This document shows, piece after piece, positions 637 through 52,909 of a stretch of DNA of 64,000 nucleotides. The DNA comes from Bacilli bacterium. Its GTDB lineage: Bacteria; Bacillota_I; Bacilli_A; ML615J-28; CAG-313. Numbering within the stretch: the first letter of the stretch is position 1; every line of letters starts with the position of its first letter. Location of the stretch: positions 30,463 through 94,462 of the forward strand of contig JAZSNL010000020.1 in assembly GCA_045536365.1 (NCBI GenBank), given 5' to 3'. Made by a program: the position numbers and the translations under genes. The notes beneath the pieces are model-generated. The model made no database searches and was not told where the DNA came from. It worked only from the letters and a program-made list of their open reading frames with translations.

Positions 637-648
637 AAGAGGTGATAT

Positions 649-2016: not shown

Positions 2017-2024
2017 GAGAATAT

Positions 2025-2651
2025 ATGTTAGGCGATAATATTAAATTATTAAGAGAAGAGGCTAGATTATCAAGAGCAGAACTTGCGGAAAAAGTGGGAA
2101 TTTCTGAACAAGTTTTAACTGATATCGAAAAAGGTCTTGCAAGACCTAGTGATAGATTACTTGAAAAAATGTGTGTCTATTTAAGAATAAGTCTTGAAGA
2201 TATTAAAACAAGAGATATAGTATCAGAAAGACAAGAAGCATTAAAGAATATGAAAAAGGATAAAACAAGAGGAGATTATAATTGGTATTTAGGAAGTAAA
2301 ACTAAAATAGCTTTTTATATATCATATCTTATTATTATTCCTGCGACATTCTTGTTAACATTATTTTGTTTTTTACTTCCTCAAAAAGAAGTAATGATGG
2401 AATTATTTGAATGGACTGAACAACAAGCAATGTTAGGATGTTTTACTTATGCATATTTATTCTGTGCTTTTCCTACATTAGTATATTTAATTATATTTGT
2501 ATTTAAAAACATAAAAATAAGACTACAATGGTGGATGATATTCTTAGTACAATTTATTATTGGTTTAGCTGGTGCAGCAGCAATAATAGCAGTTATTCCA
2601 GGTATTGTTTATTCTTTATATCAAGTTATAGTGAAACGAGGAAAAAATTAG
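2025..2651 (+). CDS. XRE-family HTH transcriptional regulator with C-terminal multi-pass membrane domain
   Basis: N-terminal LSRAELAEKVGISEQVLTDIEKG helix-turn-helix; C-terminal half has ~4 hydrophobic helices. Confidence 0.6.
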   Translation: MLGDNIKLLREEARLSRAELAEKVGISEQVLTDIEKGLARPSDRLLEKMCVYLRISLEDIKTRDIVSERQEALKNMKKDKTRGDYNWYLGSKTKIAFYISYLIIIPATFLLTLFCFLLPQKEVMMELFEWTEQQAMLGCFTYAYLFCAFPTLVYLIIFVFKNIKIRLQWWMIFLVQFIIGLAGAAAIIAVIPGIVYSLYQVIVKRGKN

Positions 2652-2659
2652 GAGGTTCT

Positions 2660-3532
2660 ATGGAAAAAAATAAAAAACCTATTATTGCATTAATGTATGA
2701 TTTTGATAAAACATTATGTGGTAAAGATATGCAAGATTACAGCTTTATTCCTAGTATTGGAATGAATTCAAGTGAATTTTGGCAAGAAGCTAATAAACTT
2801 GCAACAAAAACAAATATGGATAAGATATTAGCTTATATGTATTTGATGATTAAAACAGCCAAGAAAAATGATGTTCCTATTACAAAAGAAGCATTTACTA
2901 AATTAGGAGAAGAAGTTGTTTTATTAAAAGGTGTTAAAGGATGGTTTGACCGAATTAATGCTTATGGTAAAGTATATGATGTTGAAATAGAACATTATAT
3001 TTTATCATCAGGATTAAGTGAAATAATTGAAGGAACACCTATTGCAAAACATTTTAAACGTATATATGCATGTCAATTTCATTACAATGAAAGAGGCAAT
3101 GCTGACTGGCCTCAACAAGCAGTTAACTATACTACAAAGACACAATTCTTATTTAGAATATCTAAAGGTGTATTAGATGTTATGGATGATGTAACATTAA
3201 ATAGTTCTATTTCAGAAGAAGATAGAAGAATACCATATCATAATATGATATATATTGGAGATGGCCTAACAGATGTACCTTGTATGCGTTTAGTTAAAGA
3301 ACGAGGAGGAGAATCAATTGCTATTTTCCATCGTAATGATAAACGAATAGTTAATAAATTATTAAAAGAAGGAAGAGTAAATTATGCTTGTCCTGCTGAT
3401 TATACAAACGGAAGTATGTTAGATACAGTAGTTAAAAAGATTATTCAAAAAATGGCTATTTCTCAAGAATTAATAAATACACATATAGAACAAATAAAAG
3501 AAATTAATGATGGTGAAGAAAATGAAAAATAA
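2660..3532 (+). CDS. HAD-like hydrolase family protein
   Basis: ATG at 2660 preceded by GGAGG (2651-2655); YDFDKTL (DxDxT motif I) and IGDGLTDVPCM (motif IV-like). ORF-track start 2528 is probably an upstream over-extension. Confidence 0.5.
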   Translation: MEKNKKPIIALMYDFDKTLCGKDMQDYSFIPSIGMNSSEFWQEANKLATKTNMDKILAYMYLMIKTAKKNDVPITKEAFTKLGEEVVLLKGVKGWFDRINAYGKVYDVEIEHYILSSGLSEIIEGTPIAKHFKRIYACQFHYNERGNADWPQQAVNYTTKTQFLFRISKGVLDVMDDVTLNSSISEEDRRIPYHNMIYIGDGLTDVPCMRLVKERGGESIAIFHRNDKRIVNKLLKEGRVNYACPADYTNGSMLDTVVKKIIQKMAISQELINTHIEQIKEINDGEENEK

Positions 3533-3839
3533 AGTAATTCATTTTATCTTAACAATTTCTTATGTTACTATTTCATTAATAGGTATGGTTTTATTTCCAA
3601 TATTTTCAAATAAAGAATGGGTTGGTACATATTTAATTGTTTTACTTGTCTTTTTAGTATTTGGTTTTTTGGGATTAGTATTATATCATTCATTAATATC
3701 TAAATATAAATGTCCTCATTGTCAACATGAATTTAGAATAAATTTCTTTAAGGATTTAATTACATTAGGATCTAACAAAGGAAAAAATGTTGTTTGTCCT
3801 AATTGTAAAAATAAAAATTATATAAATAGGATTAATTAA
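3507..3839 (+). CDS. small membrane protein with C-terminal Cys4 zinc-ribbon
   Basis: 2 predicted TM helices then CPHCQHEF...CPNCKNK. Confidence 0.4.
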   Translation: MMVKKMKNKVIHFILTISYVTISLIGMVLFPIFSNKEWVGTYLIVLLVFLVFGFLGLVLYHSLISKYKCPHCQHEFRINFFKDLITLGSNKGKNVVCPNCKNKNYINRIN

Positions 3840-3841
3840 AA

Positions 3842-3876
3842 AAAGCAGTAAAATAAAATTTTTACTGCTTTTTTTA
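3842..3876 (+). terminator. Rho-independent terminator
   Basis: GCAGTAAAA-loop-TTTTACTGC hairpin followed by T-run. Confidence 0.7.
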
Positions 3877-3889
3877 TAACCTTATTCCA

Positions 3890-3918
3890 TTGACTTTTTT
3901 ACTAAAAAGTAGTATAAT
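3890..3918 (+). promoter_or_regulatory. sigma-A-like promoter of zur-znu operon
   Basis: TTGACT (3890-3895), 17-nt spacer, TATAAT (3913-3918). Confidence 0.5.
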
Positions 3919-3921
3919 AAA

Positions 3922-3938
3922 TTGAGAATGATTCTCAA
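3922..3938 (+). promoter_or_regulatory. Fur-family (probable Zur) operator, perfect 8-1-8 palindrome
   Basis: TTGAGAATgATTCTCAA immediately downstream of the -10 and upstream of the Fur-family gene. Confidence 0.55.
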
Positions 3939-3960
3939 ATTTACGAAAGGAAGATAAATT

Positions 3961-37593: not shown

Positions 37594-38315
37594 TGACATT
37601 TGATATTTTAACATTATTTCCTGAGATGTTTGAAGGTATTATTAATAGTTCTATTATTAAAAGAGCAATAGAAAAGGAATTAATAAAAATAAATATTATT
37701 GATTTTAGACAATATTCTGGTAATAAACACATGACAGTTGATGATTATGCATATGGTGGTGGAGCAGGTATGTTAATTCGTGTTGATCCTATTCATCGAG
37801 CATTACAAGAAATTCCTAATATTGATAAAGCTTATAAAATATTAACAACTCCGTCAGGCCATTTATGGAGTCAACAAAAAGCAGAACAATTATCAAAAAA
37901 TGACCATATTGTTATTATATGTGGTCATTATGAAGGTATTGATGAACGTATTACTAATTATATAAATGAAGAAATCTCTGTAGGTGACTATGTTTTAACA
38001 GGCGGTGAAATTCCTGCAGCAATCATTTTTGATTCTGTTTCAAGATTAGTTCCAGGTGTTATTAAAGATGAATCAATTATGTTAGAATCGTTTACAACTG
38101 GTATTTTAGAATACCCTCAATATACAAGACCCCCTGTTTATGATGGTCATGAGGTTCCTGAGGTATTATTATCAGGTCATCATGCGAATATTAAAAAGTG
38201 GCAAAGATACCAAGCCTTAAAGAAAACTTATCAAAATAGGCCGGAATTATTAAAAGAAGTAGAACTATCAAAAGAAGATTTAAAAATGTTAGAGGAAATA
38301 AAAAATGAAGCGTAG
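37590..38315 (+). CDS. trmD: tRNA (guanine37-N1)-methyltransferase
   Basis: MTFDILTLFPEMF start, GGGAGM, ICGHYEGIDER, SPOUT knot motifs. Confidence 0.9.
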   Translation: MMTFDILTLFPEMFEGIINSSIIKRAIEKELIKINIIDFRQYSGNKHMTVDDYAYGGGAGMLIRVDPIHRALQEIPNIDKAYKILTTPSGHLWSQQKAEQLSKNDHIVIICGHYEGIDERITNYINEEISVGDYVLTGGEIPAAIIFDSVSRLVPGVIKDESIMLESFTTGILEYPQYTRPPVYDGHEVPEVLLSGHHANIKKWQRYQALKKTYQNRPELLKEVELSKEDLKMLEEIKNEA

Positions 38316-38754
38316 TATATATATAATATTGTTACTCTTATTTATTTTTCCTTGTTTATCTAGTTGTAAAAAAATTATAACAACTGATAAAAATAGTGCT
38401 GATAAATATATAGAAACACTGTATAAATATCAAATAGGTCAAAAGAAAAATGGAATTATGATTGATTTAAGGGATATTGATATATATGCAGAAGGTCATA
38501 TTAAAGGTTTTATTAGTTATGATTATTTAAAAGATCCTGATGGGTTTATCCCTTATATGGAAGGAATGTACTCAAAAGATAAAGTAGTCTTTTTACTAAG
38601 TGATGAAAGTGACTTGATACTTGAAGTGTCAAAAATTTTACAAGAAAACGGGTATAAGAAGATATATATTTATTTAGATGGATATGATAGTTTAATTAGT
38701 CTTTCATCTGATTATTTCTTTATTGAAACTGGTTTAGATAATTGTGGATGTTAA
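38305..38754 (+). CDS. rhodanese-domain lipoprotein
   Basis: Lipobox LSSCKK; DLRDIDIYAEGHIKG rhodanese fold. Confidence 0.55.
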   Translation: MKRSIYIILLLLFIFPCLSSCKKIITTDKNSADKYIETLYKYQIGQKKNGIMIDLRDIDIYAEGHIKGFISYDYLKDPDGFIPYMEGMYSKDKVVFLLSDESDLILEVSKILQENGYKKIYIYLDGYDSLISLSSDYFFIETGLDNCGC

Positions 38755-38874: not shown

Positions 38875-41800
38875 ATGAAGAAAATTTTTATTATAATATT
38901 AGTTATATCGCTAATATTAAACAGTATTCCGTTTGCACCACTAGGAAAATTACTAGCAGCGGAATCAAATTCAATTGAGGAAACAATAGTTTCAAATAAT
39001 ATGGAGGGTTCAGATGAAATTGAATATGAAATTGAATCATTAAGAGAACCTAATTTAAAAGTATTTAAAAGAAAAGATGGATTAATAGAATATAACTATT
39101 ATGAAGAAAATGTTCATTATTTAGAAGATGGTATATATAAAGAATATGATGTTTCTTTTAATGAATCAAATAGTTCGTATTCTAATACTGTAAATGGATA
39201 TGAAGTAGTGCTTCCCAAGAATTTAAAAAAGTCTAATATTATATTAAGACATCAAGAGGATGTTTTGAAAATAAAATATTTAAGTAATACTTCAAGTAAT
39301 TCCTCATCTAAAAAAATAAAAGAAGAAAAAGAAAATAAAAAAGATGTAATTACTACAAAGTCTAAAGTAGAATATAAAAATGTTTTAAAACATTCAATTA
39401 TTGAATTAATCCATACACCTACAGGATTAAAAGAAAATATTATATTAGAAAAGTATGTTAAAAATTATAGTTTTAGTTATATAATTGAAACTAGTTTAAA
39501 ATTAGTAAATGAAAATGATACTTTATATTTTTATAATGATTATGAAAAAGAAATATTTAGATTTAATCCTTATAATATTGTAGATAGTCAAAATAGGATA
39601 TCATATGATGTAGAGTTAAATATATCAATTACAGAAGAAGGTTACTTAGTAGATGTTATACCAAGTGATGAAGTATTAAAAGAATTTACTTATCCAATAA
39701 CAATTGATCCAGTAATTGAATATTCGAGTTCTACAATAGCCAGCAATATAAAAACTAAGTATTTCAGAAAAAATTTCAATGGAACAACACCAGGAATTAA
39801 AATAGAAAAATATGTTAATACTTTCCAAAATGCAGATGGTACATTTGGTAGTGAAGATATTTCTACTCTTACCATAATGGAGATAGATGAAGATATATTG
39901 GATGATAATCTTAATGTAGACACAATTAAATTTGCAAAATTAAAATTTAGGATTAAATCTTCAACACAGGATAATTCATATGATATAGCTGTAAATAGAA
40001 TAACGAGATTCTATGTTGGTGATGTGCCTTTTATTTCATATCCATATGATAATATAGATGGATACACAAATTATGAAACAAAGTCGATAGGAACTATGAA
40101 AAGAGTTGAAAACGCGTATGAACTCGATTTAACAAATGTAATCAAAGAAACAAAACATAACACAATGGTGTTAGAACTTACTGCAAAAAACATACCTAAT
40201 AATGAAGAAAATGTTATTTTATATGATTCTTCTTATACAGATAATAGTCAGAGACCTATGTTAACAATAGCATATATGGACAGCATGGGATTAATTGACT
40301 TTTTAACTTATCATACAGTAACATCAGGTAATACAACAGCTTACGTAAATGATTGTTTTGGTAATTTGGTCGTTGAACAAACTGATTATTTATCAAATTC
40401 AGAAAAAATATCATTTGATATAAGTCATTATTATAATATATCTTCTTCTACTACATCGGATTATGATGTAGGATATGGAAGAGGTATGACTTTAAGTTAC
40501 CTTGAAAGGGTTGTTCCAGAAACGTTAAATACTGAATATTATTCTGTTATTGAATCAACAGGTAGAAAAAAGTATTATAAAAAAGGAGCTATTACTCAAA
40601 ATGGATTTACCTATGTTAGTGAAGAGGGAGATGATGAATACTTAATAGTAAATTTAGCATCTTCAGTACCATATAAAAAAGTCATTCAAGAAAAATATGC
40701 GTATTGTTATGATAATGAAGGATATTTAGTAAAAATAATGGAACGCTTTACTCTGACTACTTTTATAGAGATCACTTATAAAACTACAACATATAGGGGT
40801 AATAAATTAATAGATGAAATAAAGGATTCTTCTAATAACTACGCAAAATTTATATATGAAAATAATCACTTATCAAAGATTCAAATATATAAAGCTACAT
40901 ACGAAGGAGAAAATGTTATAGGATATGAAATATCACAAACTAATAAATATGAATATGATAGTTCATTTAGAATGATAAAAACTTTATATTATAAAGGAAA
41001 TGAAGAAATTCTATTAGGTAAAGAAGAATATGAATACAATACAACAGATGATACATTATTAAAAATAGAGAGTTATAATTATAATGGAACTGAATATATT
41101 TTCATATCAAATATGGAGTTTTTATATTTAAATGAACAAGTAGTAGAATATTCTTCTCTTTTAGGTAGTAACAAAGAAAATGAAACTACTATGAAGATGT
41201 ATATTGAGTATGGAGATAGAACAACTACATTCACTAATAGCCTGGGACAAAGCACAAAATATTTATTTGATTATTTCGGACATACAAAAACAGTAATTGA
41301 TAATTATGGTAATACAACACATTATAAATATGCAAATTACAATAATGAACTATATAAGGATAATCCAAATTATGTTTTGAAACATCAAATTGAGGAAGTA
41401 TCAAGTCCTGTGAATTTAGGTTATAATTTAATTGATAATCATTCATTTGAAGAAGGAGAAAACCATTGGAATATATATTCTGGGGATATAGTGTATACTT
41501 CTGCATATGGATTAAAAGCATTGAAAGTAGATTTATCAAATAGTAATGAGAATACCGTTACAGCAAACCAAAAAATTAGTGTACAGACAAATAAAGTATA
41601 TACCCTTACCGCATTTATTAAAGGAAGCGGTGATATTTTGATAGTATCAGATAATGAAAATTATACTGTTTCCCAAAGCGAGTTGACTGAAACTACTGAT
41701 GATTATTTTTTATATAAAAAAACATTTAGTGTAAGCAGCATAGATCCAGATGAAGAATATGCAGAAGTGTATATTAATTTATGTACAAAAGAAACAGATC

Positions 41801-44800
41801 AATTTTCTGAACAAGTATACTTTGATCAAATAATGATAGATAAAAATAATATTGATACAATATACAATATGTTAATTAATCCATCGTTTGAAGAAAACAA
41901 TAGTTGGAGTGGAGGACAAAGGATATTAAGAACTTCTGACCAATCAATGTTTGGTAATTATGAAATGAAAGTGAGTGGTAACTCAATAGTTCATCAAGAA
42001 TTTGATGGTGTTCATATTCTAAAAGATACAACTATTACCATAGGTGGATTTGTAAGAACAAATGGAACAAGTGTACGTTTAAGAGTGCAATTTTTGAATT
42101 CAGAAACAGGATCAATGTCTAATTCATATGTAGTTCAATTTTACCCATATTTAACAGATTATCAATTTAATCTAAGTGAGTTTTCAGTAGAAGATGAATT
42201 TAGTACTGAATATTATGATGTCGTTTTCTTTGATATTATTAATACGGGAGAAATTGATTGTTATGTTGATAATTTAATATTAACATATGATTTATATGAA
42301 ATAAAATATGAATATAATGAACTTGGTTATCAAACTAAAAGCATATATGGTTCTTCAGTTACGTCAATAGAATATAAGAGTGATAATAGAACACCGGTAA
42401 AAATAACAAAAGATAATAAAGAATTATCATTAGATATACAAACATTCTCTACATCAATAGAATTTGATAATGTTAATATAACTGAAAATAAAAACTCATA
42501 TAATCAAGTAACATCTACTATAATAAATGATAAGCAAGTTAGTGAGACAGAATACGGTTATAATAATCAATATGTTACTTCACAAACAATTATCGGCAAT
42601 ATAGTAGAATATTCTTATGATTATTTATATGGTCTTTTGAACTCTGTTGAATATTCTGATGGTAATACCATTCAATATCAATATGATGATTACAATAGAT
42701 TATTACAAACAAGTTTCACTAAAGGAAAAATTAGTTATTTATATGATGATTATGGTAATATTGAAAAAATAGAAATACTAGGACAACTTGGCAATATATT
42801 AATGAGTTATTATTTTGAATATAATGAACATTTTGATATAGAAACTATATATGTAGGAAAAGATACAAATAAAGATAGAATCATTAAATATGAATATTTG
42901 TATTTAACATTATCAAATGGTAATGAAGTATATACTGGATTAATTAATAAAGTTATTAAAGGAAATAATGATGATAATTATGAAAGATACGAATACGATA
43001 AAGAATTTAATTTATATAAAACATATATTAAAAAGCCAAATATAGAAGAAACATTAATATCAGAGTTGTTATATGATAATTACAAGAATTTATCATTTTA
43101 TAAAGATTATGTTGATAACAAAATATATATGTATAATTATGATAAAGAGAATAGATTAATAAGTTGTCTTGATGAAAAAGGTAATGGTGTAAAATATCAA
43201 TATTTAACAATAGACAGTGACCAAAAAGAAAAAGTAATAGTTGAATATATTGTTGATAATACTGTTTTAACGACTATGACGTTTATATATAAAGAAGATG
43301 AATTAATAGAATATTTGACAAATGATATAAAGTCAAATCCTCAAGCAATTATTGACGATTATGATAGAGTGACTGAAAAACTATTAACCACAACGGATAA
43401 TAATGAATTGATAAAATATATTTATCAATACAATGAAGACAAAATCAGTCAATTAGATGGTTATGAAATAAAAATAGGTAATGATACATTAAAATATGGA
43501 TATTCATATGACATATATGGAAATATAATTCAAATAATAAAATATAAAAATAATGTAGAATTTGAAAAAATAGAATATCAATATAATAATAATCAAGAGC
43601 TATTACAAGAAAAAATTACAAGAAATAATGTAATAGTATTAGTAACAAATTATACATATAATACTATAGGTAACATAACATCAATAACAAGAACTACAAA
43701 ACAAGGAGAATATAGTAATTTACCATATAAAATCGAATTTATGTATGATACTAATGTTAGAATGAAATTATTATACTATAGAGTATATTTACATGGTTCT
43801 TTATCTTATACAACATACAACATTACATATGATGAATTTGGAAATATAAGACATGATGGTAAAAACTTGTTTATATATGATATAGATAAACTTATAAATA
43901 TTCAAAATGATAATAATAATATAATTTATGATTATAATAGTGATGGAGTACGCATCTATAAAAAAATAATAAATTTAGATGACACATATGAAGAAGTACA
44001 TTATGATGTATCAGGAGATATCATTTTAAAAGAAACAAGATATGATTCTTCAACAAACACAACAACATATATAATATATATTTATGATGAATCAGGAGTA
44101 GTAGGATTCAAAGTAGGAACAGATATAAATAACTTAACAACATACTATTTTGTAAAAAATCTCCAAAATGATATAATACAAATTATTGACACAAATGAAA
44201 ATGTTGTGGTAGAATATACTTATGATGCGTATGGCAATGTATTTGTATCAGGAACATTATCAAATACAATAGGAAAACTTAATCCATATAGATACAGAGG
44301 GTATTATTATGATGAGGAAACTCAGCTTTATTGGGTATCCTCAAGGTATTATTCACCAGAATTATGTAGATTTATAAGTCCTGATGATGTAGAATATCTA
44401 GATCCAGAATCATTAAATGGATTAAACTTATACTGCTATTGTGTGAACAATCCTATTATGTATATTGATCCTTATGGAAATGATGCAATTTTAATAACTG
44501 AATATTTACCAATGGGGTTACCTATTGTAGGTCACTCTGTTTTATTCGTTCAAGATGAAAATGGAGAATGGTGGATTACTGAATATTCAGGTTCTTTTCC
44601 TGATAAGAGTACTGCTCATGTTATTTGTAGAAAAGCTACACAGTCGGATTGGGAAAGATTTAAGCCGCAAAAAGGGTTTTGGAACTCTATTAAAAATCTG
44701 TTTCAAATTTCAGGGAATTCATCAGTTTATTTAAAAGGTGATTATTCTAACAGTTTAAGTAAAGCACAAAGCTTAAATGGTTTGGATTTTGGTGGATATC

Positions 44801-45006
44801 ACGCATTTACAAATAATTGCTTGCATTACGTTAAATCGATTTTAAGTGAAACAAATATTGATTCAGTTACGAATAATTATTTTAAGAATTCAAAAATTTT
44901 TATTCCATGCATGTTTACAAATATGACTACATTATGTAGTGTGATTGATGATGTAATTGATACTGGAAATAAAGTTTATAATTTTATAAAAGGTATTTTC
45001 AACTAA
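38875..45006 (+). CDS. Sec-secreted RHS/YD-repeat polymorphic toxin (WapA-like), 2043 aa, with variable C-terminal toxin domain
   Basis: N-terminal signal peptide; two CBM4/9-like beta-sandwich regions (~41.4-42.3 kb); many YD repeats (YEYDSSFRMIKT, YSYDYLYGLLNSVEYSDGNTIQYQYDDYNRL, YTYDAYGNV); RHS core end RYRGYYYDEETQLYWVSSRYYSPELCRFISPDDVEYLDPESLNGLNLYCYCVNNPIMYIDPYGN; ~175-aa C-terminal tip. Confidence 0.85.
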   Translation: MKKIFIIILVISLILNSIPFAPLGKLLAAESNSIEETIVSNNMEGSDEIEYEIESLREPNLKVFKRKDGLIEYNYYEENVHYLEDGIYKEYDVSFNESNSSYSNTVNGYEVVLPKNLKKSNIILRHQEDVLKIKYLSNTSSNSSSKKIKEEKENKKDVITTKSKVEYKNVLKHSIIELIHTPTGLKENIILEKYVKNYSFSYIIETSLKLVNENDTLYFYNDYEKEIFRFNPYNIVDSQNRISYDVELNISITEEGYLVDVIPSDEVLKEFTYPITIDPVIEYSSSTIASNIKTKYFRKNFNGTTPGIKIEKYVNTFQNADGTFGSEDISTLTIMEIDEDILDDNLNVDTIKFAKLKFRIKSSTQDNSYDIAVNRITRFYVGDVPFISYPYDNIDGYTNYETKSIGTMKRVENAYELDLTNVIKETKHNTMVLELTAKNIPNNEENVILYDSSYTDNSQRPMLTIAYMDSMGLIDFLTYHTVTSGNTTAYVNDCFGNLVVEQTDYLSNSEKISFDISHYYNISSSTTSDYDVGYGRGMTLSYLERVVPETLNTEYYSVIESTGRKKYYKKGAITQNGFTYVSEEGDDEYLIVNLASSVPYKKVIQEKYAYCYDNEGYLVKIMERFTLTTFIEITYKTTTYRGNKLIDEIKDSSNNYAKFIYENNHLSKIQIYKATYEGENVIGYEISQTNKYEYDSSFRMIKTLYYKGNEEILLGKEEYEYNTTDDTLLKIESYNYNGTEYIFISNMEFLYLNEQVVEYSSLLGSNKENETTMKMYIEYGDRTTTFTNSLGQSTKYLFDYFGHTKTVIDNYGNTTHYKYANYNNELYKDNPNYVLKHQIEEVSSPVNLGYNLIDNHSFEEGENHWNIYSGDIVYTSAYGLKALKVDLSNSNENTVTANQKISVQTNKVYTLTAFIKGSGDILIVSDNENYTVSQSELTETTDDYFLYKKTFSVSSIDPDEEYAEVYINLCTKETDQFSEQVYFDQIMIDKNNIDTIYNMLINPSFEENNSWSGGQRILRTSDQSMFGNYEMKVSGNSIVHQEFDGVHILKDTTITIGGFVRTNGTSVRLRVQFLNSETGSMSNSYVVQFYPYLTDYQFNLSEFSVEDEFSTEYYDVVFFDIINTGEIDCYVDNLILTYDLYEIKYEYNELGYQTKSIYGSSVTSIEYKSDNRTPVKITKDNKELSLDIQTFSTSIEFDNVNITENKNSYNQVTSTIINDKQVSETEYGYNNQYVTSQTIIGNIVEYSYDYLYGLLNSVEYSDGNTIQYQYDDYNRLLQTSFTKGKISYLYDDYGNIEKIEILGQLGNILMSYYFEYNEHFDIETIYVGKDTNKDRIIKYEYLYLTLSNGNEVYTGLINKVIKGNNDDNYERYEYDKEFNLYKTYIKKPNIEETLISELLYDNYKNLSFYKDYVDNKIYMYNYDKENRLISCLDEKGNGVKYQYLTIDSDQKEKVIVEYIVDNTVLTTMTFIYKEDELIEYLTNDIKSNPQAIIDDYDRVTEKLLTTTDNNELIKYIYQYNEDKISQLDGYEIKIGNDTLKYGYSYDIYGNIIQIIKYKNNVEFEKIEYQYNNNQELLQEKITRNNVIVLVTNYTYNTIGNITSITRTTKQGEYSNLPYKIEFMYDTNVRMKLLYYRVYLHGSLSYTTYNITYDEFGNIRHDGKNLFIYDIDKLINIQNDNNNIIYDYNSDGVRIYKKIINLDDTYEEVHYDVSGDIILKETRYDSSTNTTTYIIYIYDESGVVGFKVGTDINNLTTYYFVKNLQNDIIQIIDTNENVVVEYTYDAYGNVFVSGTLSNTIGKLNPYRYRGYYYDEETQLYWVSSRYYSPELCRFISPDDVEYLDPESLNGLNLYCYCVNNPIMYIDPYGNDAILITEYLPMGLPIVGHSVLFVQDENGEWWITEYSGSFPDKSTAHVICRKATQSDWERFKPQKGFWNSIKNLFQISGNSSVYLKGDYSNSLSKAQSLNGLDFGGYHAFTNNCLHYVKSILSETNIDSVTNNYFKNSKIFIPCMFTNMTTLCSVIDDVIDTGNKVYNFIKGIFN
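44236..44440 (+). repeat. RHS core-end repeat (copy in full-length gene)
   Basis: ~205 nt nearly identical to 47375..47580; weaker copies at 45822..45990, 48851..49012, 51962..52013. Confidence 0.7.
44479..45003 (+). other. C-terminal toxin tip: permuted papain-fold (NlpC/P60 superfamily, PPPDE/LRAT-like) candidate domain
   Basis: His-containing VGHSVLFVQDENGEWWITEYSGS followed ~100 aa later by YHAFTNNCLHYV (cf. NC[NE]HF of PPPDE/LRAT). Confidence 0.35.
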
Positions 45007-45028: not shown

Positions 45029-45676
45029 ATGAAAAAAATAATAAATAAATTGGGACTATTGATATTTTTATTTATTTTTATCGTTAGTGGATGTTCTATA
45101 AAAAGAAAAATAAAATTTGAAAATGAACAATTAATATATAAAGACACTTGTTATTCACTAGATGAAAATTATTTACCTATCGTTTGTGAAGGAGACATGA
45201 TTGAAATAGATAGAATTTTAGGAATATTTGGATTGCACAAATATTATATTAGTTCTTTAGATGTTGATAGCAATATTATTTATGACAATAAAAATCGATT
45301 TTACAAAGATGGCTTTCTACTTCCAAATGATAATAAAGATAATATTTCTAAAATATATATGACAATGAGTTTTAAAGGGAACTTTGATGATGAACTTCAA
45401 AAAACAGATGTTATACAATTTAATAATTCAGATTCAGTTTATTTAGATGACATAATTAATGAATGCCCAATAGATGAAGTTAAAATAGATAACAAATATA
45501 GTTTCTGGTTATTTATTATATATGAAAATTATTTATTTATGTCTATTCAATATGATATATACTATATGAACAATGAAATTTATTTTACAAAATATTATGA
45601 TAATGAACATTTATATAAAGTAAATGATAATTATAAAAAATATTTTGAAGAATCAATTATAAGAATATTGAAATAA
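45029..45676 (+). CDS. putative cognate immunity lipoprotein of the RHS toxin
   Basis: Immediately downstream (22 nt) of toxin stop, GAAGGAGG RBS; lipobox IVSGCS. Confidence 0.5.
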   Translation: MKKIINKLGLLIFLFIFIVSGCSIKRKIKFENEQLIYKDTCYSLDENYLPIVCEGDMIEIDRILGIFGLHKYYISSLDVDSNIIYDNKNRFYKDGFLLPNDNKDNISKIYMTMSFKGNFDDELQKTDVIQFNNSDSVYLDDIINECPIDEVKIDNKYSFWLFIIYENYLFMSIQYDIYYMNNEIYFTKYYDNEHLYKVNDNYKKYFEESIIRILK

Positions 45677-45813
45677 AAAATATAAATAGTTAGTTAAAAG
45701 TAGGCCGGTAAAGATGGTTATCTCTAATAGCCACCTTACAGGCTACCTAACTAGTTATTTTAGACATTATTTTATAAATTTATTATGTCTGAATATTTAG
45801 GACACCATTCGAT

Positions 45814-46392
45814 ATGATGTTGAAACTCAGCTTTTTTTGGGTATCCTCACGTTACTATTCGCCTGAATTATGTAGGTTTATAAGTCTTGATGATATTGAA
45901 TATTTAGATCCAGAATCAGTAAATGGATTGAACTTATGCAGCTATTGTGTGAACAACCCTGTTATGTATGTTGATAGTTCAGGAAATTTTCCTGTTATAG
46001 CATTTATTATAGGCGGAATTGCTGTAGGAGCGGTTGCTTCGGTTATTGTGGTTCTAGGAGTGAAAAATTGTACTTCTAAAAAAAATCCATTAAAAGAAAA
46101 TGATAAAATAAAAAATTCAGAAGGTAAAAAAAAGGATGATTTATTGGCGGATTTTTCTGATACAATTATGCCTGAATATAATCCAAAAGGTATGGCTAAT
46201 AATATTAATACCATTATAACGAATGATATAGTAAACTATCCAGCTAATTCATTGCCTATACAACCCTATGGAGCTGGAGGTTACGAAATCCCTAATGGTG
46301 ATTATAGTAGGTATAGCGGTGGAAGAGCTTTCTTTGATTCAACTTACGAAGAAGATTTATTTGATGTTATATTAAGTCTAAACATATGGTGA
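45814..46392 (+). CDS. orphan RHS C-terminal toxin cassette 1 (core-end remnant + alternative tip with TM helix)
   Basis: WVSSRYYSPELCRFISLDDIEYLDPESVNGLNLCSYCVNNPVMYVDSSGN is homologous at nt and aa level to 44331..44476; own ATG; 1-nt indel versus parental frame upstream. Confidence 0.6.
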   Translation: MMLKLSFFWVSSRYYSPELCRFISLDDIEYLDPESVNGLNLCSYCVNNPVMYVDSSGNFPVIAFIIGGIAVGAVASVIVVLGVKNCTSKKNPLKENDKIKNSEGKKKDDLLADFSDTIMPEYNPKGMANNINTIITNDIVNYPANSLPIQPYGAGGYEIPNGDYSRYSGGRAFFDSTYEEDLFDVILSLNIW

Positions 46393-46446
46393 TAAACATT
46401 CAAGTTTTCACTATGTTATAATTAGCCTATAGAAAAGGAGTAAAAT

Positions 46447-47337
46447 ATGAAAAAAAGATTCTTAATGATAATCATGATACTGTTAATAATATCATGTTCT
46501 GGATGTGAAAATAAGAAATTAGATTTAGAAACACTATATGAAAAAAATGCTAAAGTAGCAACAAGTTATTTTCCAGGATGGGGTGCAGATGATTATAAGT
46601 GCGAATTATTTATCTTCGAACCTGAAAATGCTACTGATTTTGAACTTGGACTTTGTTCTCCATATAATTTAGATGGTGTAGAAAAAGTTCTATATGTTAA
46701 GTATGAAAGAACTGATGAGATTCCATTTGTTGTTGCTTTACAATATAAATCAGTTAGACTTGCAAAAGAAGCCTATGAATTATATGGTTCGCAAAAATAT
46801 TTGCGAGAAGCAAATATTTTAGCACTTCCGATTACTCCTGCGTATATGTTTATATATGGACGCTATATAAAAGTTGATGGATATTATTTAAGTCCTGATG
46901 GTGAAGCTTTATTATATGATGGTCAAACACTAACAAGAACTGATATCGTCATACCAGAAGGTGTAAAATGTGTAGTAATGTGGAGTTTATTTTCAAAGAA
47001 AGTTAAAACTATTAAATGTAATGATGAGTTAGAGGTTTTATATTGTTGTTCGCTTGGTTATCTTGATGCACTAGAAAAAGTAGAATTAAATGATGGATTA
47101 AAAGAAATTGGCGGAGAGTGCTTTATCATGCATAATTTAGAATATATCGTTATTCCAAAAAGCGTTGAGTTAATTGGTGCTGAAGCATTTCAAAATGTAA
47201 CGATTTATTGTGAAATAGAGGAAAAACCTATAGGATGGCATAAAAATTTTGCAGGAGAAAATTGTAAAGTCTATTGGGGAGGAACATGGAAATATGTAGA
47301 TGGAATTCCTCGACCAAACAGATGGATAGAAAGATAA
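46447..47337 (+). CDS. lipoprotein with BspA-type leucine-rich repeats (LRR_5); putative immunity protein for cassette 1
   Basis: Lipobox ISCSGC; repeats LEKVELNDGLKEIGGECF / LEYIVIPKSVELIGAEAF. Confidence 0.5.
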   Translation: MKKRFLMIIMILLIISCSGCENKKLDLETLYEKNAKVATSYFPGWGADDYKCELFIFEPENATDFELGLCSPYNLDGVEKVLYVKYERTDEIPFVVALQYKSVRLAKEAYELYGSQKYLREANILALPITPAYMFIYGRYIKVDGYYLSPDGEALLYDGQTLTRTDIVIPEGVKCVVMWSLFSKKVKTIKCNDELEVLYCCSLGYLDALEKVELNDGLKEIGGECFIMHNLEYIVIPKSVELIGAEAFQNVTIYCEIEEKPIGWHKNFAGENCKVYWGGTWKYVDGIPRPNRWIER

Positions 47338-47374
47338 TAATTAAAATCGTAAAATAACTAATAAATATGTACAC

Positions 47375-47580
47375 AATGTATTTATATCAGGAACATTATC
47401 AAATACAATAGGAAAACTTAATCCATATAGATACAGAGGGTATTATTATGATGAGGAAACTCAGCTTTATTGGTTATCCTCAAGGTATTATTCACCAGAA
47501 TTATGTAGATTTATAAGTCCTGATGATGTAAGTTATCTTGATCCAGAAAGTATCAATGGATTGAACTTATATGTGTACTG
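47375..47580 (+). repeat. RHS core-end repeat (orphan cassette 2 copy)
   Basis: see 44236..44440. Confidence 0.7.
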
Positions 47581-48136
47581 TGGAAATGATCCCGTTAATA
47601 AGTATGATCCTAGCGGGCATAGTGCAATTTTAGCTAATTTAATTGCGAAGGGAATTTTAGCTATAGATACAATTGCAGAAACTGCTATATTGATGAATTC
47701 AGACAAATATAAAGCTGAGAATGTTTATCATGTTAATCCATCAACTGGTGAGGGAAATGTACATATTCCTAATTCTGCTGCATTTAATAACCCAATAGCT
47801 CAATTAATTTATTCTAATTATCTATATGAAAATGTAAAGAATAAAGATGGAAGCAATTTTTTTACAGGTGATCCTTATGATATTGTTGGTGAATGGCAAG
47901 CACATAATTTTGCGGCTAATTTAACAGGTTCATTAATGGTATTGAGTTTTATTCCTTTAGCATCATTATCAAATGGAGATTATTTTTGGTCAAAATTATA
48001 TAACGCACACAGTAGAAGTGTTCATACTGATATAGGTCCAAATATAGACTCTGAAAAAAGAGGAATAGTTAGAGTTGTATCAAAGATTTATAAATGGATT
48101 AATAAAATTAAAAGCTTTGATATTCTTAATTGGTAA
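47378..48136 (+). CDS. orphan RHS C-terminal toxin cassette 2 (no ATG; in-frame homology from 47378, ORF-track start 47561)
   Basis: VFISGTLSNTIGKLNPYRYRGYYYDEETQLYWLSSRYYSPELCRFISPDDVSYLDPESINGLNLYVYCGNDPVNKYDPSGH; nt 47375-47580 nearly identical to 44236-44440. Confidence 0.6.
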   Translation, partial: VFISGTLSNTIGKLNPYRYRGYYYDEETQLYWLSSRYYSPELCRFISPDDVSYLDPESINGLNLYVYCGNDPVNKYDPSGHSAILANLIAKGILAIDTIAETAILMNSDKYKAENVYHVNPSTGEGNVHIPNSAAFNNPIAQLIYSNYLYENVKNKDGSNFFTGDPYDIVGEWQAHNFAANLTGSLMVLSFIPLASLSNGDYFWSKLYNAHSRSVHTDIGPNIDSEKRGIVRVVSKIYKWINKIKSFDILNW

Positions 48137-48162
48137 TTGTATATTAAAGGAGTAGGGATCAT

Positions 48163-48702
48163 ATGAAAAAAATAAAGTTAATTGCATTATTAATTTTTTC
48201 TGGATTTATAGTTACATTGATATTCGGATTTTTAATCGATATTGATTACTCAAAAAACGTCATAAAAACAAGTGATAAATCGCTTTATGAGATGAATGAA
48301 TATTATTTTTTACCTAACTATAATGAATTTGAATATAAAGAAAATGTTACCGGGTTTTACACATATGATTCCTCTAATACACTTTCTGGAGGAAGTGTTT
48401 CTTATGTATTAGAATTACAATTTGCAACTAAAAAAGTCTATAATGAATTTTTAGAATATGAGTACACAAGATATGAATATGATAGTAATTCAATCATTTT
48501 AAAAAATAATTATGAATGTTATTTGTGTTTGAATGAAGATATTACTCAATATTATTATGGTGAATATATGCCGTATGCGTTAGGAATGTTATGTTTAAAT
48601 GAAAAAGATATAAAAATTAGATATGTATACTATGTTAATATAGAACATTCCATAGATAATAAATTTAATGATGTATTTCAAAATACAAATTGTACTTGGT
48701 GA
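48163..48702 (+). CDS. membrane-anchored/exported protein; putative immunity protein for cassette 2
   Basis: N-terminal TM/signal anchor; follows cassette 2 by 27 nt with AGGAG RBS. Confidence 0.45.
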   Translation: MKKIKLIALLIFSGFIVTLIFGFLIDIDYSKNVIKTSDKSLYEMNEYYFLPNYNEFEYKENVTGFYTYDSSNTLSGGSVSYVLELQFATKKVYNEFLEYEYTRYEYDSNSIILKNNYECYLCLNEDITQYYYGEYMPYALGMLCLNEKDIKIRYVYYVNIEHSIDNKFNDVFQNTNCTW

Positions 48703-48850
48703 ACGTATTGATTTTAGAAAGAGCATAGGGAGAATATTATTTTATAATATTTCTCCGAGTGCTTAATTATGTAAATTGGATACCAATTTCATTACTAACA
48801 TATTATAATTAGGATATAGTTATTATGAGGATACTCGTAATAGCCCTGTT

Positions 48851-49498
48851 GAAACTCAGTTATTCTATTGCAACTCTAGATATTATTCACCTGAACTTTG
48901 TAGGTTCATAAGTCCAGATAGTATTGAGTATTTAGATCCTGAAAGTATCAATGGATTGAACTTATATGCGTACTGTGGAAATGATCCCGTTAATAAGTAT
49001 GATCCTACAGGTCACATCGCGATTAGTACAATTATTGGAATAATTCTTGGTATAGGTGCTTTGGCGGCAACCGCTAATGATATTTATCAAATTGCAAGTG
49101 GAAATGTGTATGTAGATATGAATAAAACAGATAATGAAAATGTTCATATTGAAAATTCCTATAAAATACTAACCCCTTGGATGAGATATGGTTATAGTTT
49201 CTATTTGAATCATTTTAATCCTAATACTAAAGATGTTATTCAGGGAAGTACAGCAGGAGTTCAATTTGAATGGGAATTGCATAATTATGCTGCTTGGCTG
49301 GGTTTTGGTGGAGAGCCAGCTAAACATCTTGATGTTGGAAAAACTATATTTGCGGATGGGGAAGCTCATCCATTAAGGGATAAAGATGGTGATATCACAA
49401 AAGAAGGTGTGATGTCACTAGGAATGAGGATAGGTTATATTTTATCAGGTAACCCTATATATTGGATTCCGGATTTAATTATAAATGGAGGATTTTAA
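48851..49498 (+). CDS. orphan RHS C-terminal toxin cassette 3 (no ATG; frame open from 48809, ORF-track start 48956)
   Basis: ETQLFYCNSRYYSPELCRFISPDSIEYLDPESINGLNLYAYCGNDPVNKYDPTGH then unique ~160-aa tip; 48956-49012 almost identical to 47556-47612. Confidence 0.6.
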   Translation, partial: ETQLFYCNSRYYSPELCRFISPDSIEYLDPESINGLNLYAYCGNDPVNKYDPTGHIAISTIIGIILGIGALAATANDIYQIASGNVYVDMNKTDNENVHIENSYKILTPWMRYGYSFYLNHFNPNTKDVIQGSTAGVQFEWELHNYAAWLGFGGEPAKHLDVGKTIFADGEAHPLRDKDGDITKEGVMSLGMRIGYILSGNPIYWIPDLIINGGF

Positions 49499-49625
49499 AA
49501 TGAAAAAGATATGCGTATTACTTTTAACAATATTAACTTTGCTTTTAACTTCCTGTGGAGAAGACACAACACGATTAGCAAAAGATGAATTTTCGAAATA
49601 TTATAATGGAAGAAATGAAGTTGTT
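49412..49625 (+). repeat. toxin-3 tail/imm-3 start repeat; second copy at 50893..51100
   Basis: ~85-90 % identical over ~210 nt including RBS and lipoprotein signal peptide coding. Confidence 0.65.
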
Positions 49626-50357
49626 TTAAATTATTTAGATAATCTTTACTTTGAAAATTATATCCTTAGTTTAAGTGATTTGATAGAAAAGAGTGAATTT
49701 AATAATGGTTTGATTATAAAACAAGATAAATTCTTTTTTTCAACCTCTACAGAAAATTCAATGTATGATTTCACTTTAAATATTTATGAGGCAAATTTAC
49801 AAGGCACGAATGTAAAAATGATTTTTTCCAAAGATGGGTATAAAACTCATCCTTGGGTCTATGCTATTGATGAAATGTTTTATGTGGAATTTTATTCAAA
49901 TAATGCTTTTGATTTAAAAAGTAAATTAATTGATAAATATACAATATCTACAAGAATTTATGAGAATGTTGCTAGTGGAGAGGATTGTTCTTTATCTGAC
50001 TATTTTCAAAGTGACTCTCAAAGTAGATACAGTATTGAAGTAGTAGAAAACATATCTCCTCAAGAACATGGTGAATTTATTATTACTGACTTAGAAAATG
50101 GAATAACTAATATTATAGATGATGATTACTTAAAAGATACGATTTATATTGAGTCTATGGAAAAATTTAATTATAGTCCAATGAGATTTGATATATCAAA
50201 TGACAAGATTTTATTAACATATGGAATAGGTGCAGGAGATGGATGGAATAATGCGCATTTGATATTTGAATATGATTTTAATTCGAATAAATTAAAATAT
50301 CAATTACTTGCATTTCCAGATGATTTGATGAATGTAAAAATTATATACATTGGTTAA
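49499..50357 (+). CDS. lipoprotein; putative immunity protein for cassette 3
   Basis: ATG 49499 6 nt after GGAGGA lying in the toxin's last codons; lipobox LLTSCG. Confidence 0.5.
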
Positions 50358-50881: not shown

Positions 50882-50975
50882 TCGAGTAATGTCATTAGAA
50901 TGAGGATAGCTTATATTAGGTTTGGTAACCCTATGTTTTGGATTCCGGATTTAATTGTGAATGGAGGATTTTAAA
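50882..50975 (+). pseudogene. internally deleted remnant of a cassette-3-type toxin (only last ~25 codons retained)
   Basis: ...MRIAYIRFGNPMFWIPDLIVNGGF* matches the tail of 48851..49498; 5' junction fused directly to this tail. Confidence 0.55.
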
Positions 50976-51818
50976 TTGAAGAAGATATGCCTATTATTTT
51001 TAACAATATTAACTTTGCTTTTAACTTCTTGTAGATAAGATACAACGCAATTAGCAAAAGATGAGTTTTCGAAATATTATAATGGGAAAGACGAAGTTGT
51101 CTTAAATATTGAAGACAATCTTTATTTTGAAAATCATATTTTAGAGAGTGAAAGTTTAAAAAATTCATATGGTTCTATAGTTTTTCACGAAAACTTAATT
51201 TATTATGTATCAATTAATAGTTTAAAGAAAAAATATAGAAATGAATTTATAAACATTTATACCTGTGATTGCTATGGCGAAAATACAAATATTATTTATT
51301 CAAAAGAGATAAATACAAATAGTAATATTACATTAAAAACAAATAAAGACTCTTATTATATTGAATACAAAAAAGAAAAGTTGATTTATATTGATAAATA
51401 CACAATATCAACAGGAATTTACGAAAATATTGCTAGTGGCAAAGATTGTAGTCTATCTGATTATATGCCAAAAGAAGAACAAAGCAGATATAGTATTGAA
51501 GTAATAGAAAATATATCACCTCAAAAACACGGAAAATTTATTGTCACTGATTTAGAAACAGGTTTATCTAATATAATAGATGATGAATATTTAAGGAACA
51601 CAATATATATTGAGTCTATGGAGAAGTTTAATTATAGTCCTAAAAGAGTTGATATATCTAACGGACATATTTTATTAACATATGGAATAGGTGCAGGAGA
51701 TGGATGGAACTATCCACATTTAGTTTTTGAATATGATTTTGATTCAAATACATTGGAATACAAATTATTAGCATTTCCATTTGATAGCGTGCCTATAGAG
51801 ATTATCTATATTGGTTAA
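50976..51818 (+). pseudogene. paralog of immunity lipoprotein 49499..50357 inactivated by a single nonsense codon (TAA 51036..51038)
   Basis: LKKICLLFLTILTLLLTSCR*; frame then stays open to 51818 and is ~70 % identical in its C-half to imm-3 (ORF-track piece 51381..51818). Confidence 0.6.
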
Positions 51819-51961: not shown

Positions 51962-52070
51962 AACCAAGATTATGACGGCGAAACTCAGTTATTTTATTGC
52001 AACTCTAGATATTATTCGCCTGAATTATGCATATGGATTTACCATTTTCTCTGCGGGAGGCAATTTGGGT
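51962..52070 (+). repeat. fourth RHS core/toxin junction remnant (truncated after ~30 codons)
   Basis: GAAACTCAGTTATTTTATTGCAACTCTAGATATTATTCGCCTGAATTATGC = ETQLFYCNSRYYSPELC, then stop; same junction sequence as cassette 3. Confidence 0.55.
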
Positions 52071-52337
52071 AGAAAAGATTGGTATTTAGACGAGAGTAAA
52101 GAAAGATCGATATATTTTAGTGGTTTTAATTTAGAGGTTTCTATAGAAATATCAGAAGATATGAAAAGTGAAAAGGATTTGTTTAGTGTGGCTTGCAGTA
52201 TTTTTAAATTTGGATATGATGGAAAATTTATTGATTTTAACATAGCTTTAGGTCTTACACAAGAATATATTAATATTGATATTGTTGCTATTATTCGAGA
52301 GATAGAAGACGTTTTAAAAAATGGGAGAAGAGTATAA
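51972..52337 (+). CDS. hypothetical ORF (+1 frame relative to RHS remnant); possible orphan immunity/cargo gene or spurious
   Basis: 121-aa ORF overlapping the junction remnant in a different frame. Confidence 0.25.
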   Translation: MTAKLSYFIATLDIIRLNYAYGFTIFSAGGNLGRKDWYLDESKERSIYFSGFNLEVSIEISEDMKSEKDLFSVACSIFKFGYDGKFIDFNIALGLTQEYINIDIVAIIREIEDVLKNGRRV

Positions 52338-52655
52338 GTGGTAAATAATAAGGAAATAAGATTACGTATAGAACTAGGTATATTAAAAAAAAGATATTGC
52401 GCATTATGCGGGTTAAAACTTAACAGAAAAATTATATGTATAGATCAGATATATGTATATAGACCCTTTTGCCTACCTTTTTTAAAAGAGAAAAAAGCGA
52501 AGAGGATAGTTGTTACTCCGGTATATTATTGTAGAAAATGCAACTATATGATAGATTATGATTCGCAAAAAAAAATATCAATTAAACAAAAAGAGAGCAA
52601 TTCTTATATTTTGTTAGAAGGTAACAATTTAATTAAAAAATTAAAAATAAAATAA
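52338..52655 (+). CDS. Cys-rich (CxxC x2) small basic protein, island cargo
   Basis: CALCG...CRKCNY zinc-ribbon-like. Confidence 0.35.
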   Translation: MVNNKEIRLRIELGILKKRYCALCGLKLNRKIICIDQIYVYRPFCLPFLKEKKAKRIVVTPVYYCRKCNYMIDYDSQKKISIKQKESNSYILLEGNNLIKKLKIK

Positions 52656-52672
52656 TAAGAGGTGATAATATT

Positions 52673-52909
52673 ATGAACAAAAGAAAATATTCTATGATGG
52701 ATAAAGTTTTAAGTTATATTCTTCTGGTCTTAGCTATTTTTGGCTGCACGTTAGGATTGTTGATTGTGACATCTACCATAAAATTAGTTGATTCTTTTCC
52801 AATTTCATCTAGTCGGTTTGGTTTTTATTTGATAATAATTAGCTTGTTTTGTTTTATATATTCTATTATTATTATTGTTTTATCAAATAAACAATTAAAG
52901 CGCAAATAA
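52673..52909 (+). CDS. small 2-TM membrane protein
   Basis: 78 aa, AGAGGTG RBS. Confidence 0.35.
   Translation: MNKRKYSMMDKVLSYILLVLAIFGCTLGLLIVTSTIKLVDSFPISSSRFGFYLIIISLFCFIYSIIIIVLSNKQLKRK

Follow-up and report, generated by a model that had tools for sequence, protein, structure and literature searches.

The DNA analysed here is a stretch of 64,000 nucleotides from a Bacilli bacterium (NCBI GenBank assembly GCA_045536365.1, contig JAZSNL010000020.1, positions 30,463 to 94,462 of the forward strand), referred to below as the window, with a G+C content of about 26% throughout. It carries an RHS/WapA-type toxin gene followed by a row of orphan cassettes, and each of the four C-terminal toxin domains (tips) of this locus is followed by a gene for a candidate immunity protein with a predicted export signal. 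The full-length gene (38875..45006, + strand) encodes a Sec-dependent RHS/WapA-type toxin of 2043 aa and is the only cassette with a delivery scaffold of its own. By hydropathy, the N-terminus of the protein is a hydrophobic signal (MKKIFIIILVISLILNSIPFAPLGKLLAAES), and the NCBIfam model TIGR03696 (Rhs_assc_core) matched aa 1783-1868 with an E of 1.2e-19 and 70.6 bits, above its cutoff of 32.5. A cleavage region of the DPxG...DPxG type (...LDPESLNGLNLYCYCVNNPIMYIDPYGN) lies before tip0, the C-terminal toxin domain of 175 aa (aa 1869-2043; 44479..45006, +).

The RHS protein was detected solely by TIGR03696. The Pfam scan of the 2043 aa gave zero matches at E<=0.1, RHS_repeat included, and therefore RHS proteins of this low-GC lineage would escape Pfam-based screens. 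YD-like repeats were seen by eye, and PF25023 (TEN_YD-shell) was found in close relatives. PAAR, LXG and WXG gave no match in the RHS protein with either Pfam or NCBIfam. When the whole protein was compared by tblastn with the genome contigs, only one distant Faecousia RHS protein was recovered (aa 1243-2011, 28% identity), and its tip, which contains a Hint segment, is unrelated.

The terminal ~170-260 nt of the core occur five times at the locus, the full-length gene included. The downstream copies of this core-end repeat begin at 45741, 47374, 48851 and 51980, and the first three each run into a different tip (tip1, tip2 and tip3). All the genes concerned lie on the + strand. The gene for tip0 is followed by imm1, its candidate immunity gene (45029..45676). 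Orphan cassette 1 (45741..46392, ORF, for open reading frame, at 45814..46392) joins a core-end repeat (D1/D2, with a partial TIGR03696 match) to tip1 and is followed by imm2 (46447..47337), the candidate immunity to tip1; orphan cassette 2 (47374..48136, ORF at 47561..48136; repeat D1/D2) carries tip2 and is followed by the corresponding imm3 (48163..48702); and orphan cassette 3 (48851..49498, ORF at 48956..49498; repeats D2/D5) carries tip3 and is followed by imm4 (49500..50357). The gap between the tip and the downstream gene is 1-54 nt at all four pairs.

The export of the four candidate immunity proteins was predicted by pattern and hydropathy rules, together with the conservation of the signal in homologues. 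The lipobox rule (PROSITE PS51257-type) asked for a positively charged n-region, a hydrophobic h-region and [LVI][ASTVI][GAS]C with the cysteine at positions 15-35. An MKK n-region and a hydrophobic h-region were present in imm1, imm2 and imm4. The N-terminus of imm1 (MKKIINKLGLLIFLFIFIVSGC) matched both the PS51257-type and the stricter G+LPP lipobox patterns at Cys22 (IVSGC), the lipobox-compatible cysteine of imm2 (MKKRFLMIIMILLIISCSGC) was Cys17 (IISC), and imm4 (MKKICVLLLTILTLLLTSC) had its lipobox at Cys19 (LLTSC). The N-terminus of imm3 consists of 20 hydrophobic residues (Kyte-Doolittle hydropathy, KD, 2.77) without a lipobox or an obvious cleavage site. Shine-Dalgarno-like sequences (GGAGG or AAGGAG) were located 6-10 nt ahead of each ATG. 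On this basis, imm1, imm2 and imm4 are predicted to be lipoproteins and imm3 to have an uncleaved N-terminal anchor, in agreement with an earlier note on this DNA, which had described four exported candidates, three as lipoproteins and one as anchored. The gene limits given in that note stood for imm1 to imm3, but imm4 starts at 49500 and not at 49499, the frame of which contains 43 stop codons. In the same way, its assignment of a lipoprotein signal to imm2, through an ISCSGC lipobox, was right, but the cysteine is Cys17 and not the second one of that motif.

As the genome has about 26% G+C and the prediction is rule-based, these signals could be artefacts of AT-richness or of mis-chosen start codons. 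However, a lipobox appeared in only 0.1% of composition-matched shuffled N-termini, and of the window's 56 ORFs with 100 aa or more it was found in four, namely imm1, imm2, imm4 and the ZnuA solute-binding lipoprotein, which leaves 1 of the 52 ORFs outside the four candidates (Fisher one-sided p = 5.7e-4). Therefore, the observation stands and does not arise from AT-richness. The start codons are also preceded by canonical ribosome-binding sites, and homologues as distant as 26% identity, as well as a Clostridia metagenome-assembled genome (MAG), keep both the signal and the position of the cysteine, so that an artefact is very improbable.

With regard to family, imm2 contains a BspA-type leucine-rich repeat (LRR) domain (LRR_5, PF13306; 37.2 bits against a Pfam cutoff of 27.7), whereas imm1, imm3 and imm4 were assigned to no family in Pfam or NCBIfam scans. 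Searches of PDB sequences with tip0, imm1, imm3 and imm4 returned nothing significant, and look-ups of the exact sequences of imm4 and of the tip1 ORF gave no record.

The association between tips and downstream genes was followed in related loci, where, on independent metagenome contigs, each tip family was trailed by the same downstream family. The tip0-imm1 pair is also present in L003, with a tip 87% identical to tip0 and imm1 after it; in L002, a tip 33% identical to tip0 is followed by a lipoprotein beginning MKKLVLLITILLSAILISSC, and in L020 the protein downstream of a tip0-type tip is anchored by a transmembrane segment. L020 was one of only two loci recovered by a scan of metagenome contigs with a small tip0 alignment, the other, L021, being uninformative. 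The tip1-imm2 pair recurs in L022, and L015 contains three tandem paralogues of imm2 (73-88% identity to it), all of them lipobox-bearing and alternating with orphans of the tip1 family that have the transmembrane helix and the C-terminus in common and differ in the middle. PF13306 was annotated on the imm2 paralogues of L015, L016, L022 and L023. Homologues of imm3 were found after tip2-like tips in L005 (96% identity), L018 (43%, with a transmembrane anchor) and L011 (26%, with the lipobox FFFGC), and lipobox-bearing homologues of imm4 after tip3-like tips in L004 (63%) and L005 (58%). Overall, tip2-like tips had an imm3-like partner in 4/4 loci and tip3-like tips an imm4-like partner in 3/4. 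Although tip2 and tip3 are homologous (38% identity) and imm3 and imm4 unrelated, the pairing is, to judge from these sequences, specific, with each of the two sub-branches retaining its own partner. A lipobox or transmembrane segments were present in 17/17 of the downstream genes inspected in related loci, and the export signal was retained in homologues across 26-96% identity as well as in the Clostridia MAG.

This conservation also bears on the possibility that the downstream genes do not confer immunity and encode instead accessory factors (for release, folding, wall passage or as receptors) or unrelated, co-travelling surface lipoproteins. imm1, imm3 and imm4 match no described immunity family, and LRR_5 domains are frequent in adhesins, both of which would suit such a role. 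A factor serving the common scaffold would, however, be conserved and not tip-specific, whereas each tip family has an unrelated downstream family. Moreover, L004, L015 and L018 are orphan arrays without a full-length RHS gene, and because such arrays keep the pairs, an accessory role for the common scaffold is disfavoured. The one-to-one alternation of tips and LRR lipoproteins in L015 is in turn the pattern expected for diversification of a toxin with its immunity. We therefore regard accessory or co-travelling genes as quite improbable.

Two other RHS genes were observed among the related loci. In L011 (ENA ERZ13410416, 1..16813), an RHS protein of 1769 aa has a glycine-zipper-rich hydrophobic tip and a partner with four transmembrane segments, and its neighbours are holin, PcfJ, MutS_I and N6_Mtase genes, a setting that looks like a phage or another mobile element. 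In L001 (4963..6375 of the Faecousia sp. MAG contig JBJDYH010000313.1), the tip opens with a hydrophobic stretch rich in alanine, continues with a Hint/intein-like segment and closes with a small domain, and the 155-aa partner has no signal peptide; the hydrophobic segment is directly behind the RHS cleavage motif, as elsewhere.

A probable fold could be assigned to tip0, the expressed tip. A word-seeded search returned 3 relatives and an exhaustive profile search 273 clusters, a family without a Pfam model in which the domain lies directly behind the RHS cleavage motif in nearly all members. In an alignment of 40 sequences, G18-H19 and C114 (in TNNCLHYV) were invariant. The AlphaFold (AF2) model of tip0, with a mean confidence score (pLDDT) of 90.8, placed His19 in a strand (19-25) and Cys114 at the opening of a helix (114-122), and this order of His before Cys corresponds to a circular permutation. 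Its top fold match in the PDB was the 2A protein of Aichivirus (H-box/NC, LRAT-like), with a Foldseek E of 7.9e-3, a probability of 1.0 and a TM-score of 0.58 on the target. Sub-threshold Pfam matches in the 40 family members were to LRAT (19), TseH (10), PPPDE (8) and Lnb_N/DUF4105 (4), and LRAT, TseH, PPPDE and Lnb_N/DUF4105 are among the permuted, lipid-directed branches of NlpC/P60 (PMC12994826). By sequence and model, tip0 is probably a permuted (His-Cys) NlpC/P60 domain of the LRAT/TseH/Tox-Act1 kind, so that the papain-like fold foreseen in the earlier note could be narrowed to this class by the invariant His19 and Cys114, the fold match and the sub-threshold LRAT and TseH matches.

The domain architectures of the relatives point to the compartment. 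A PG_binding_1 domain is located between the RHS cleavage site and the tip0-type domain in P0105 and L020, and Big_2 repeats precede the tip0-type domain in P0154 and P0203; both arrangements are extracytoplasmic. Tox-Act1 and TseH, which are also permuted NlpC/P60 proteins, have phospholipase activity and are toxic only in the periplasm (PMC12994826). Because of this precedent and of the extracytoplasmic fusions of its relatives, tip0 is, by analogy, most likely a phospholipase or acyltransferase of the outer face, the next choice being a wall amidase. Outside RHS proteins, tip0-type domains (P0154, P0203, P0119 and P0152) were observed behind Big_2 repeats or behind a conserved module, '...GFxYDGSxxDFxRL..LPPYxYExW'.

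The other three tips were assigned to no family in Pfam, NCBIfam or related-locus scans. tip1, for which 14 homologues were found, consists of a glycine-rich transmembrane helix (FPVIAFIIGGIAVGAVASVIVVLGV; KD 2.71, aa 56-88), a K-rich linker and a domain of ~90 aa. A match of tip1 to GH49 (E 0.014-0.021) was under the cutoff and deemed noise. In cassette 1, the RHS-core similarity upstream of the listed ATG (45800..45860) seems to shift frame across a T-run (gaaactcagcttttttttggg), which suggests that the cassette is frameshifted and not expressed; the tip1 ORF is split in L022 too (2020..2445 and 2394..2618).

tip2 and tip3 belong to one family, of which 90 proteins were collected by a word-seeded search. 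Most are orphan cassettes, and the few named members come from Anaeroplasma, Erysipelotrichaceae and Clostridia MAGs. Alignment A4 revealed an N-terminal hydrophobic helix and the conserved motifs NVxIxNS, YSxYLxN and EWxxHN; in tip3, this helix is glycine-zipper-like (KD 2.26). The AF2 model of tip3 was mostly helical (pLDDT 93.1) and had no match in a Foldseek search of the PDB (best E 0.97), and the family profile recovered only RHS shells among PDB sequences. Membership of the Lipocone toxins (TelC, Min-Wnt, CapCone and others), which are characterised by a cone of four helices with His in H2 and Asp in H4, was considered and not established: tip2 and tip3 show a helical model with E-x-x-x-H-N in one helix and no PDB fold match.

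An informative comparison was provided by L022 (ENA ERZ28633604, a 47.9-kb contig, 1..3600), which represents the corresponding site on the chromosome of a sister strain, as its flanks match those of the window (CvfB, L19, MFS, TMEM164, Mur ligase, LacI and TyrRS). The two sites have nearly identical RHS cores and different tips, and in L022 several hydrophobic helices precede a domain of ~100 aa ending ...GVQIHYVGNRFFPNWYPFSPWFDYKIKYHK. The comparison of the two sites thus shows a replacement of the tip at the strain level. The 131-aa protein downstream of the L022 tip has no signal peptide, and neither it nor the tip gave a family in Pfam/NCBIfam scans; a single further cassette is made up of a frameshifted tip1 and imm2. 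Because the L022 partner has no signal peptide, predicted export is a property of particular tip/immunity pairs and not of the locus. For the same reason, action from outside cannot be read from the hydrophobic helices of a tip alone, and the transmembrane helix of the cassette-1 tip, which the earlier note took as consistent with such action, is no evidence for it on its own.

The L022 tip also bears on the possibility of immunity by exclusion, in which the tips would act in the cytoplasm and the surface proteins would block their docking or translocation, for example by capturing the entry helix. The hydrophobic helices at the start of tips 1-3 and the K-rich segment behind the transmembrane helix of tip1 speak for it, and so does L022, where hydrophobic helices together with a cytoplasmic candidate immunity protein fit a role in translocation. 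Nevertheless, the signal-less partner in L022 implies equally that this lineage employs cytoplasmic immunity where it is needed, and tip0, which lacks a hydrophobic entry segment, comes from a clade in which wall-binding fusions occur and toxicity is restricted to the periplasm. Furthermore, we know of no demonstration of exclusion-type immunity for RHS toxins, which counts against this explanation. Exclusion is therefore judged unlikely, although it is the rival to which we give most weight.

The reading that we favour, with a probability of roughly 75%, is that each tip has a cognate, surface-anchored immunity protein and that the tips act on the membrane or the wall from outside, as the earlier note had proposed. 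The conserved exported pairs, the clade of tip0 and the contrast with L022 give it support in silico, and from these we infer immunity function, binding, site of action and enzymatic activities. According to this proposal, the RHS protein would leave the cell via Sec, enclosing its own tip, and would free the tip at the surface of a neighbouring cell, with the wall zone or the outer leaflet as its site of action. As the tips would act outside the cytoplasm, the immunity proteins would be held on the outer face of the membrane, three of them by lipidation of the lipobox cysteine and one by its uncleaved signal anchor. Sibling cells would be protected because the anchored proteins would bind and neutralise incoming tips on the same membrane face. 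The three promoterless orphan cassettes could recombine through the core-end repeat and so exchange one tip/immunity pair for another. Within this scheme, tip0 would most likely deacylate membrane phospholipids, as a phospholipase A or an acyltransferase, in the wall zone or at the outer leaflet, or else, as a second option, cleave peptidoglycan or another acylated component of the envelope. tip2 and tip3, with a hydrophobic helix and a helical domain of ~130 aa with conserved Ser, Glu-Trp and His-Asn, would most likely enter the target membrane from outside and there disturb the membrane itself or attack an envelope precursor bound to it.

Several observations weigh against this proposal. The hydrophobic helices of the L022 tip coexist with a candidate immunity protein that is cytoplasmic, and the K-rich stretch right behind the transmembrane helix of tip1 would, by the positive-inside rule, place the C-terminal domain of this tip in the cytoplasm. 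In L017, a Clostridia MAG, the lipoprotein that follows a tip3-like tip had no BLASTP match to imm1-imm4 at E<=0.01. Every Pfam match of tip0 is under the curated cutoff, and its Foldseek E is only 8e-3. Finally, for tips 1-3, which could be placed in no fold or family, the site of action is deduced from the immunity proteins only.

A broader reading, which we hold tentatively and consider less likely to be true than false, is that tip2 and tip3 represent a new toxin fold that anchors itself in the target membrane by its N-terminal helix and catalyses an undescribed reaction at the outer leaflet, and, jointly with this, that the RHS toxins of the lineage are mainly directed at the envelope. 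The conserved Ser, Glu-Trp and His-Asn would then act on a substrate such as lipid II, the head group of a phospholipid or lipoteichoic acid, and the unrelated imm3 and imm4 families would have evolved against two sub-branches of the tip2/tip3 family. In that case, gut Firmicutes of the Erysipelotrichales-like type would use their Sec-secreted RHS toxins mainly as weapons against the membrane and the envelope and not as nuclease carriers.

Regarding the host, the window contains genes for a Mur ligase, a class-C beta-lactamase/PBP-like protein and a YlbD spore-coat protein, and CotE, LysM, SpoVAD/SpoVAC and YtfJ genes are found at related loci. Since the window and its relatives carry both wall and spore genes, the assignment of the host to walled, spore-forming, low-GC monoderm Firmicutes is well supported by gene content. 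A wall-less Mollicute host, a possibility raised by one family match named Anaeroplasma, was ruled out by the Mur ligase and the spore-coat gene.

The locus continues downstream of imm4 with a decayed cassette (50898..51818, +; repeats D3/D4), composed of a tip3-like C-terminal remnant (to 50975) and a pseudogene paralogous to imm4 (50976..51818). The latter starts with TTG and is interrupted at codon 21, right behind the lipobox cysteine, where TAA replaces CAA in frame, and its intact counterpart is found in L005 at 3108..3956. At the tail of the locus (51972..52337, +), the last core-end remnant (51980..52029; repeat D5, 92% to the copy at 48851) runs into an ORF of 121 aa, for which neither a hydrophobic N-terminus or export signal nor a Pfam match was found. 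After it, up to 52909, there are an ORF of 105 aa with CxxC...CxxC (zinc-ribbon-like) and one of 78 aa with two transmembrane segments, both without family matches; the region 51972..52909 may be the leftover of a cassette whose immunity protein was cytoplasmic. The next gene upstream of that for the RHS protein, at 38305..38754, encodes a rhodanese-domain protein that has an N-terminal signal and a CLSSC motif and is probably a further lipoprotein overlooked by the strict lipobox pattern, with no evident tie to the toxin locus.

Among known systems, WapA from Bacillus subtilis has tRNase tips, which enter the cytoplasm, and its immunity protein WapI is cytoplasmic. The locus described here resembles WapA-WapI in its signal peptide, its core cleavage motif, a variable tip with an immunity gene (here a candidate) beside it and probably an RHS shell, but its immunity proteins are predicted to be exported. 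For type VI secretion system (T6SS) amidases and lipases, the immunity protein is located where the toxin acts. Rhs repeats are usually joined to effectors that act in the cytoplasm (PMC12994826). Like the effectors Tox-Act1 (paired with Imm-Act1) of the Salmonella T6SS and TseH of Vibrio cholerae, which are neutralised through an adjacent immunity gene, tip0 has a papain-like core with His before Cys and a candidate immunity gene next to it. Unlike these systems, the locus uses a Sec-secreted RHS cocoon in a monoderm instead of a T6SS, the similarity of tip0 is under every curated threshold, and the imm1 lipoprotein is unrelated to any described immunity protein.

Closer to the Gram-positive setting, a report on WapA of Streptococcus suis describes CT3 and CT7 as toxic in Escherichia coli only when directed to the periplasm by PelB (PMC12704120). 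The two systems have in common a Sec-dependent Gram-positive RHS/WapA protein with orphan cassettes and differ in the tip families and in that all four cassettes here are predicted to be of the extracytoplasmic type. In TelC-TipC, a pair built on an LXG toxin of Streptococcus intermedius' type VII secretion system (T7SS), immunity is located where the toxin acts (PMC6193138), and in the Lipocone polymorphic toxins, among which a papain-like fatty acyltransferase tip is listed, all immunity proteins are transmembrane proteins or lipoproteins, BamE-like ones among them (PMC12419801). The likeness to our locus is that of a Gram-positive toxin of the inner wall zone opposed by a membrane-anchored, extracytoplasmic immunity protein (here predicted); the differences are the Sec/RHS route in place of T7SS/LXG or a cystatin-like scaffold, a tip3 model that matched no PDB structure by Foldseek, and immunity folds that comprise LRR_5 and three unclassified families. 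Zhang et al. 2012 (PMC3482391) listed LRR proteins (Imm-LRR) among the immunity proteins encoded by polyimmunity loci in Firmicutes and Tenericutes. In that 2012 census, immunity proteins were regarded as mainly cytoplasmic, and Imm65, paired with Tox-JAB-1 in Bacteroidetes, was called the only lipoprotein among them (PMC3482391). The LRR domain of imm2 and the anchoring by a lipobox resemble Imm-LRR and Imm65, respectively, whereas the presence of three predicted lipoproteins in one Gram-positive locus, and of an LRR protein, imm2, that is itself a lipoprotein paired with a tip carrying a transmembrane helix, sets the locus apart. In view of WapA CT3/CT7, TelC-TipC, Tox-Act1 and the Lipocone toxins with lipoprotein immunity, the description of this set of envelope-targeting RHS effectors as unusual, given in the earlier note, was overstated. 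The locus is a clear further example, with uncharacterised families, of an established principle, and not a new type of system.

RHS/WapA toxins are mostly regarded as nuclease carriers that need to cross the Gram-positive envelope and enter the cytoplasm. The concept that immunity sits where the toxin acts was already established beforehand; what the present locus would add is four toxin/immunity pairs that should function without membrane translocation. These are tip0/imm1, from an uncharacterised permuted NlpC/P60 family of ~270 sequence clusters outside Pfam; tip2/imm3 and tip3/imm4, from two branches of a helical toxin family without a PDB fold match; and tip1/imm2, with a family of LRR lipoprotein immunity proteins diversifying in tandem with its toxin. 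Such pairs should be simple systems in which to study the cargo that a Sec-secreted RHS cocoon brings to the wall zone, the action of lipid-targeting papain-like toxins on monoderms, and the way in which the compartment targeted by a toxin may be predicted in metagenomes from the location of its immunity protein.

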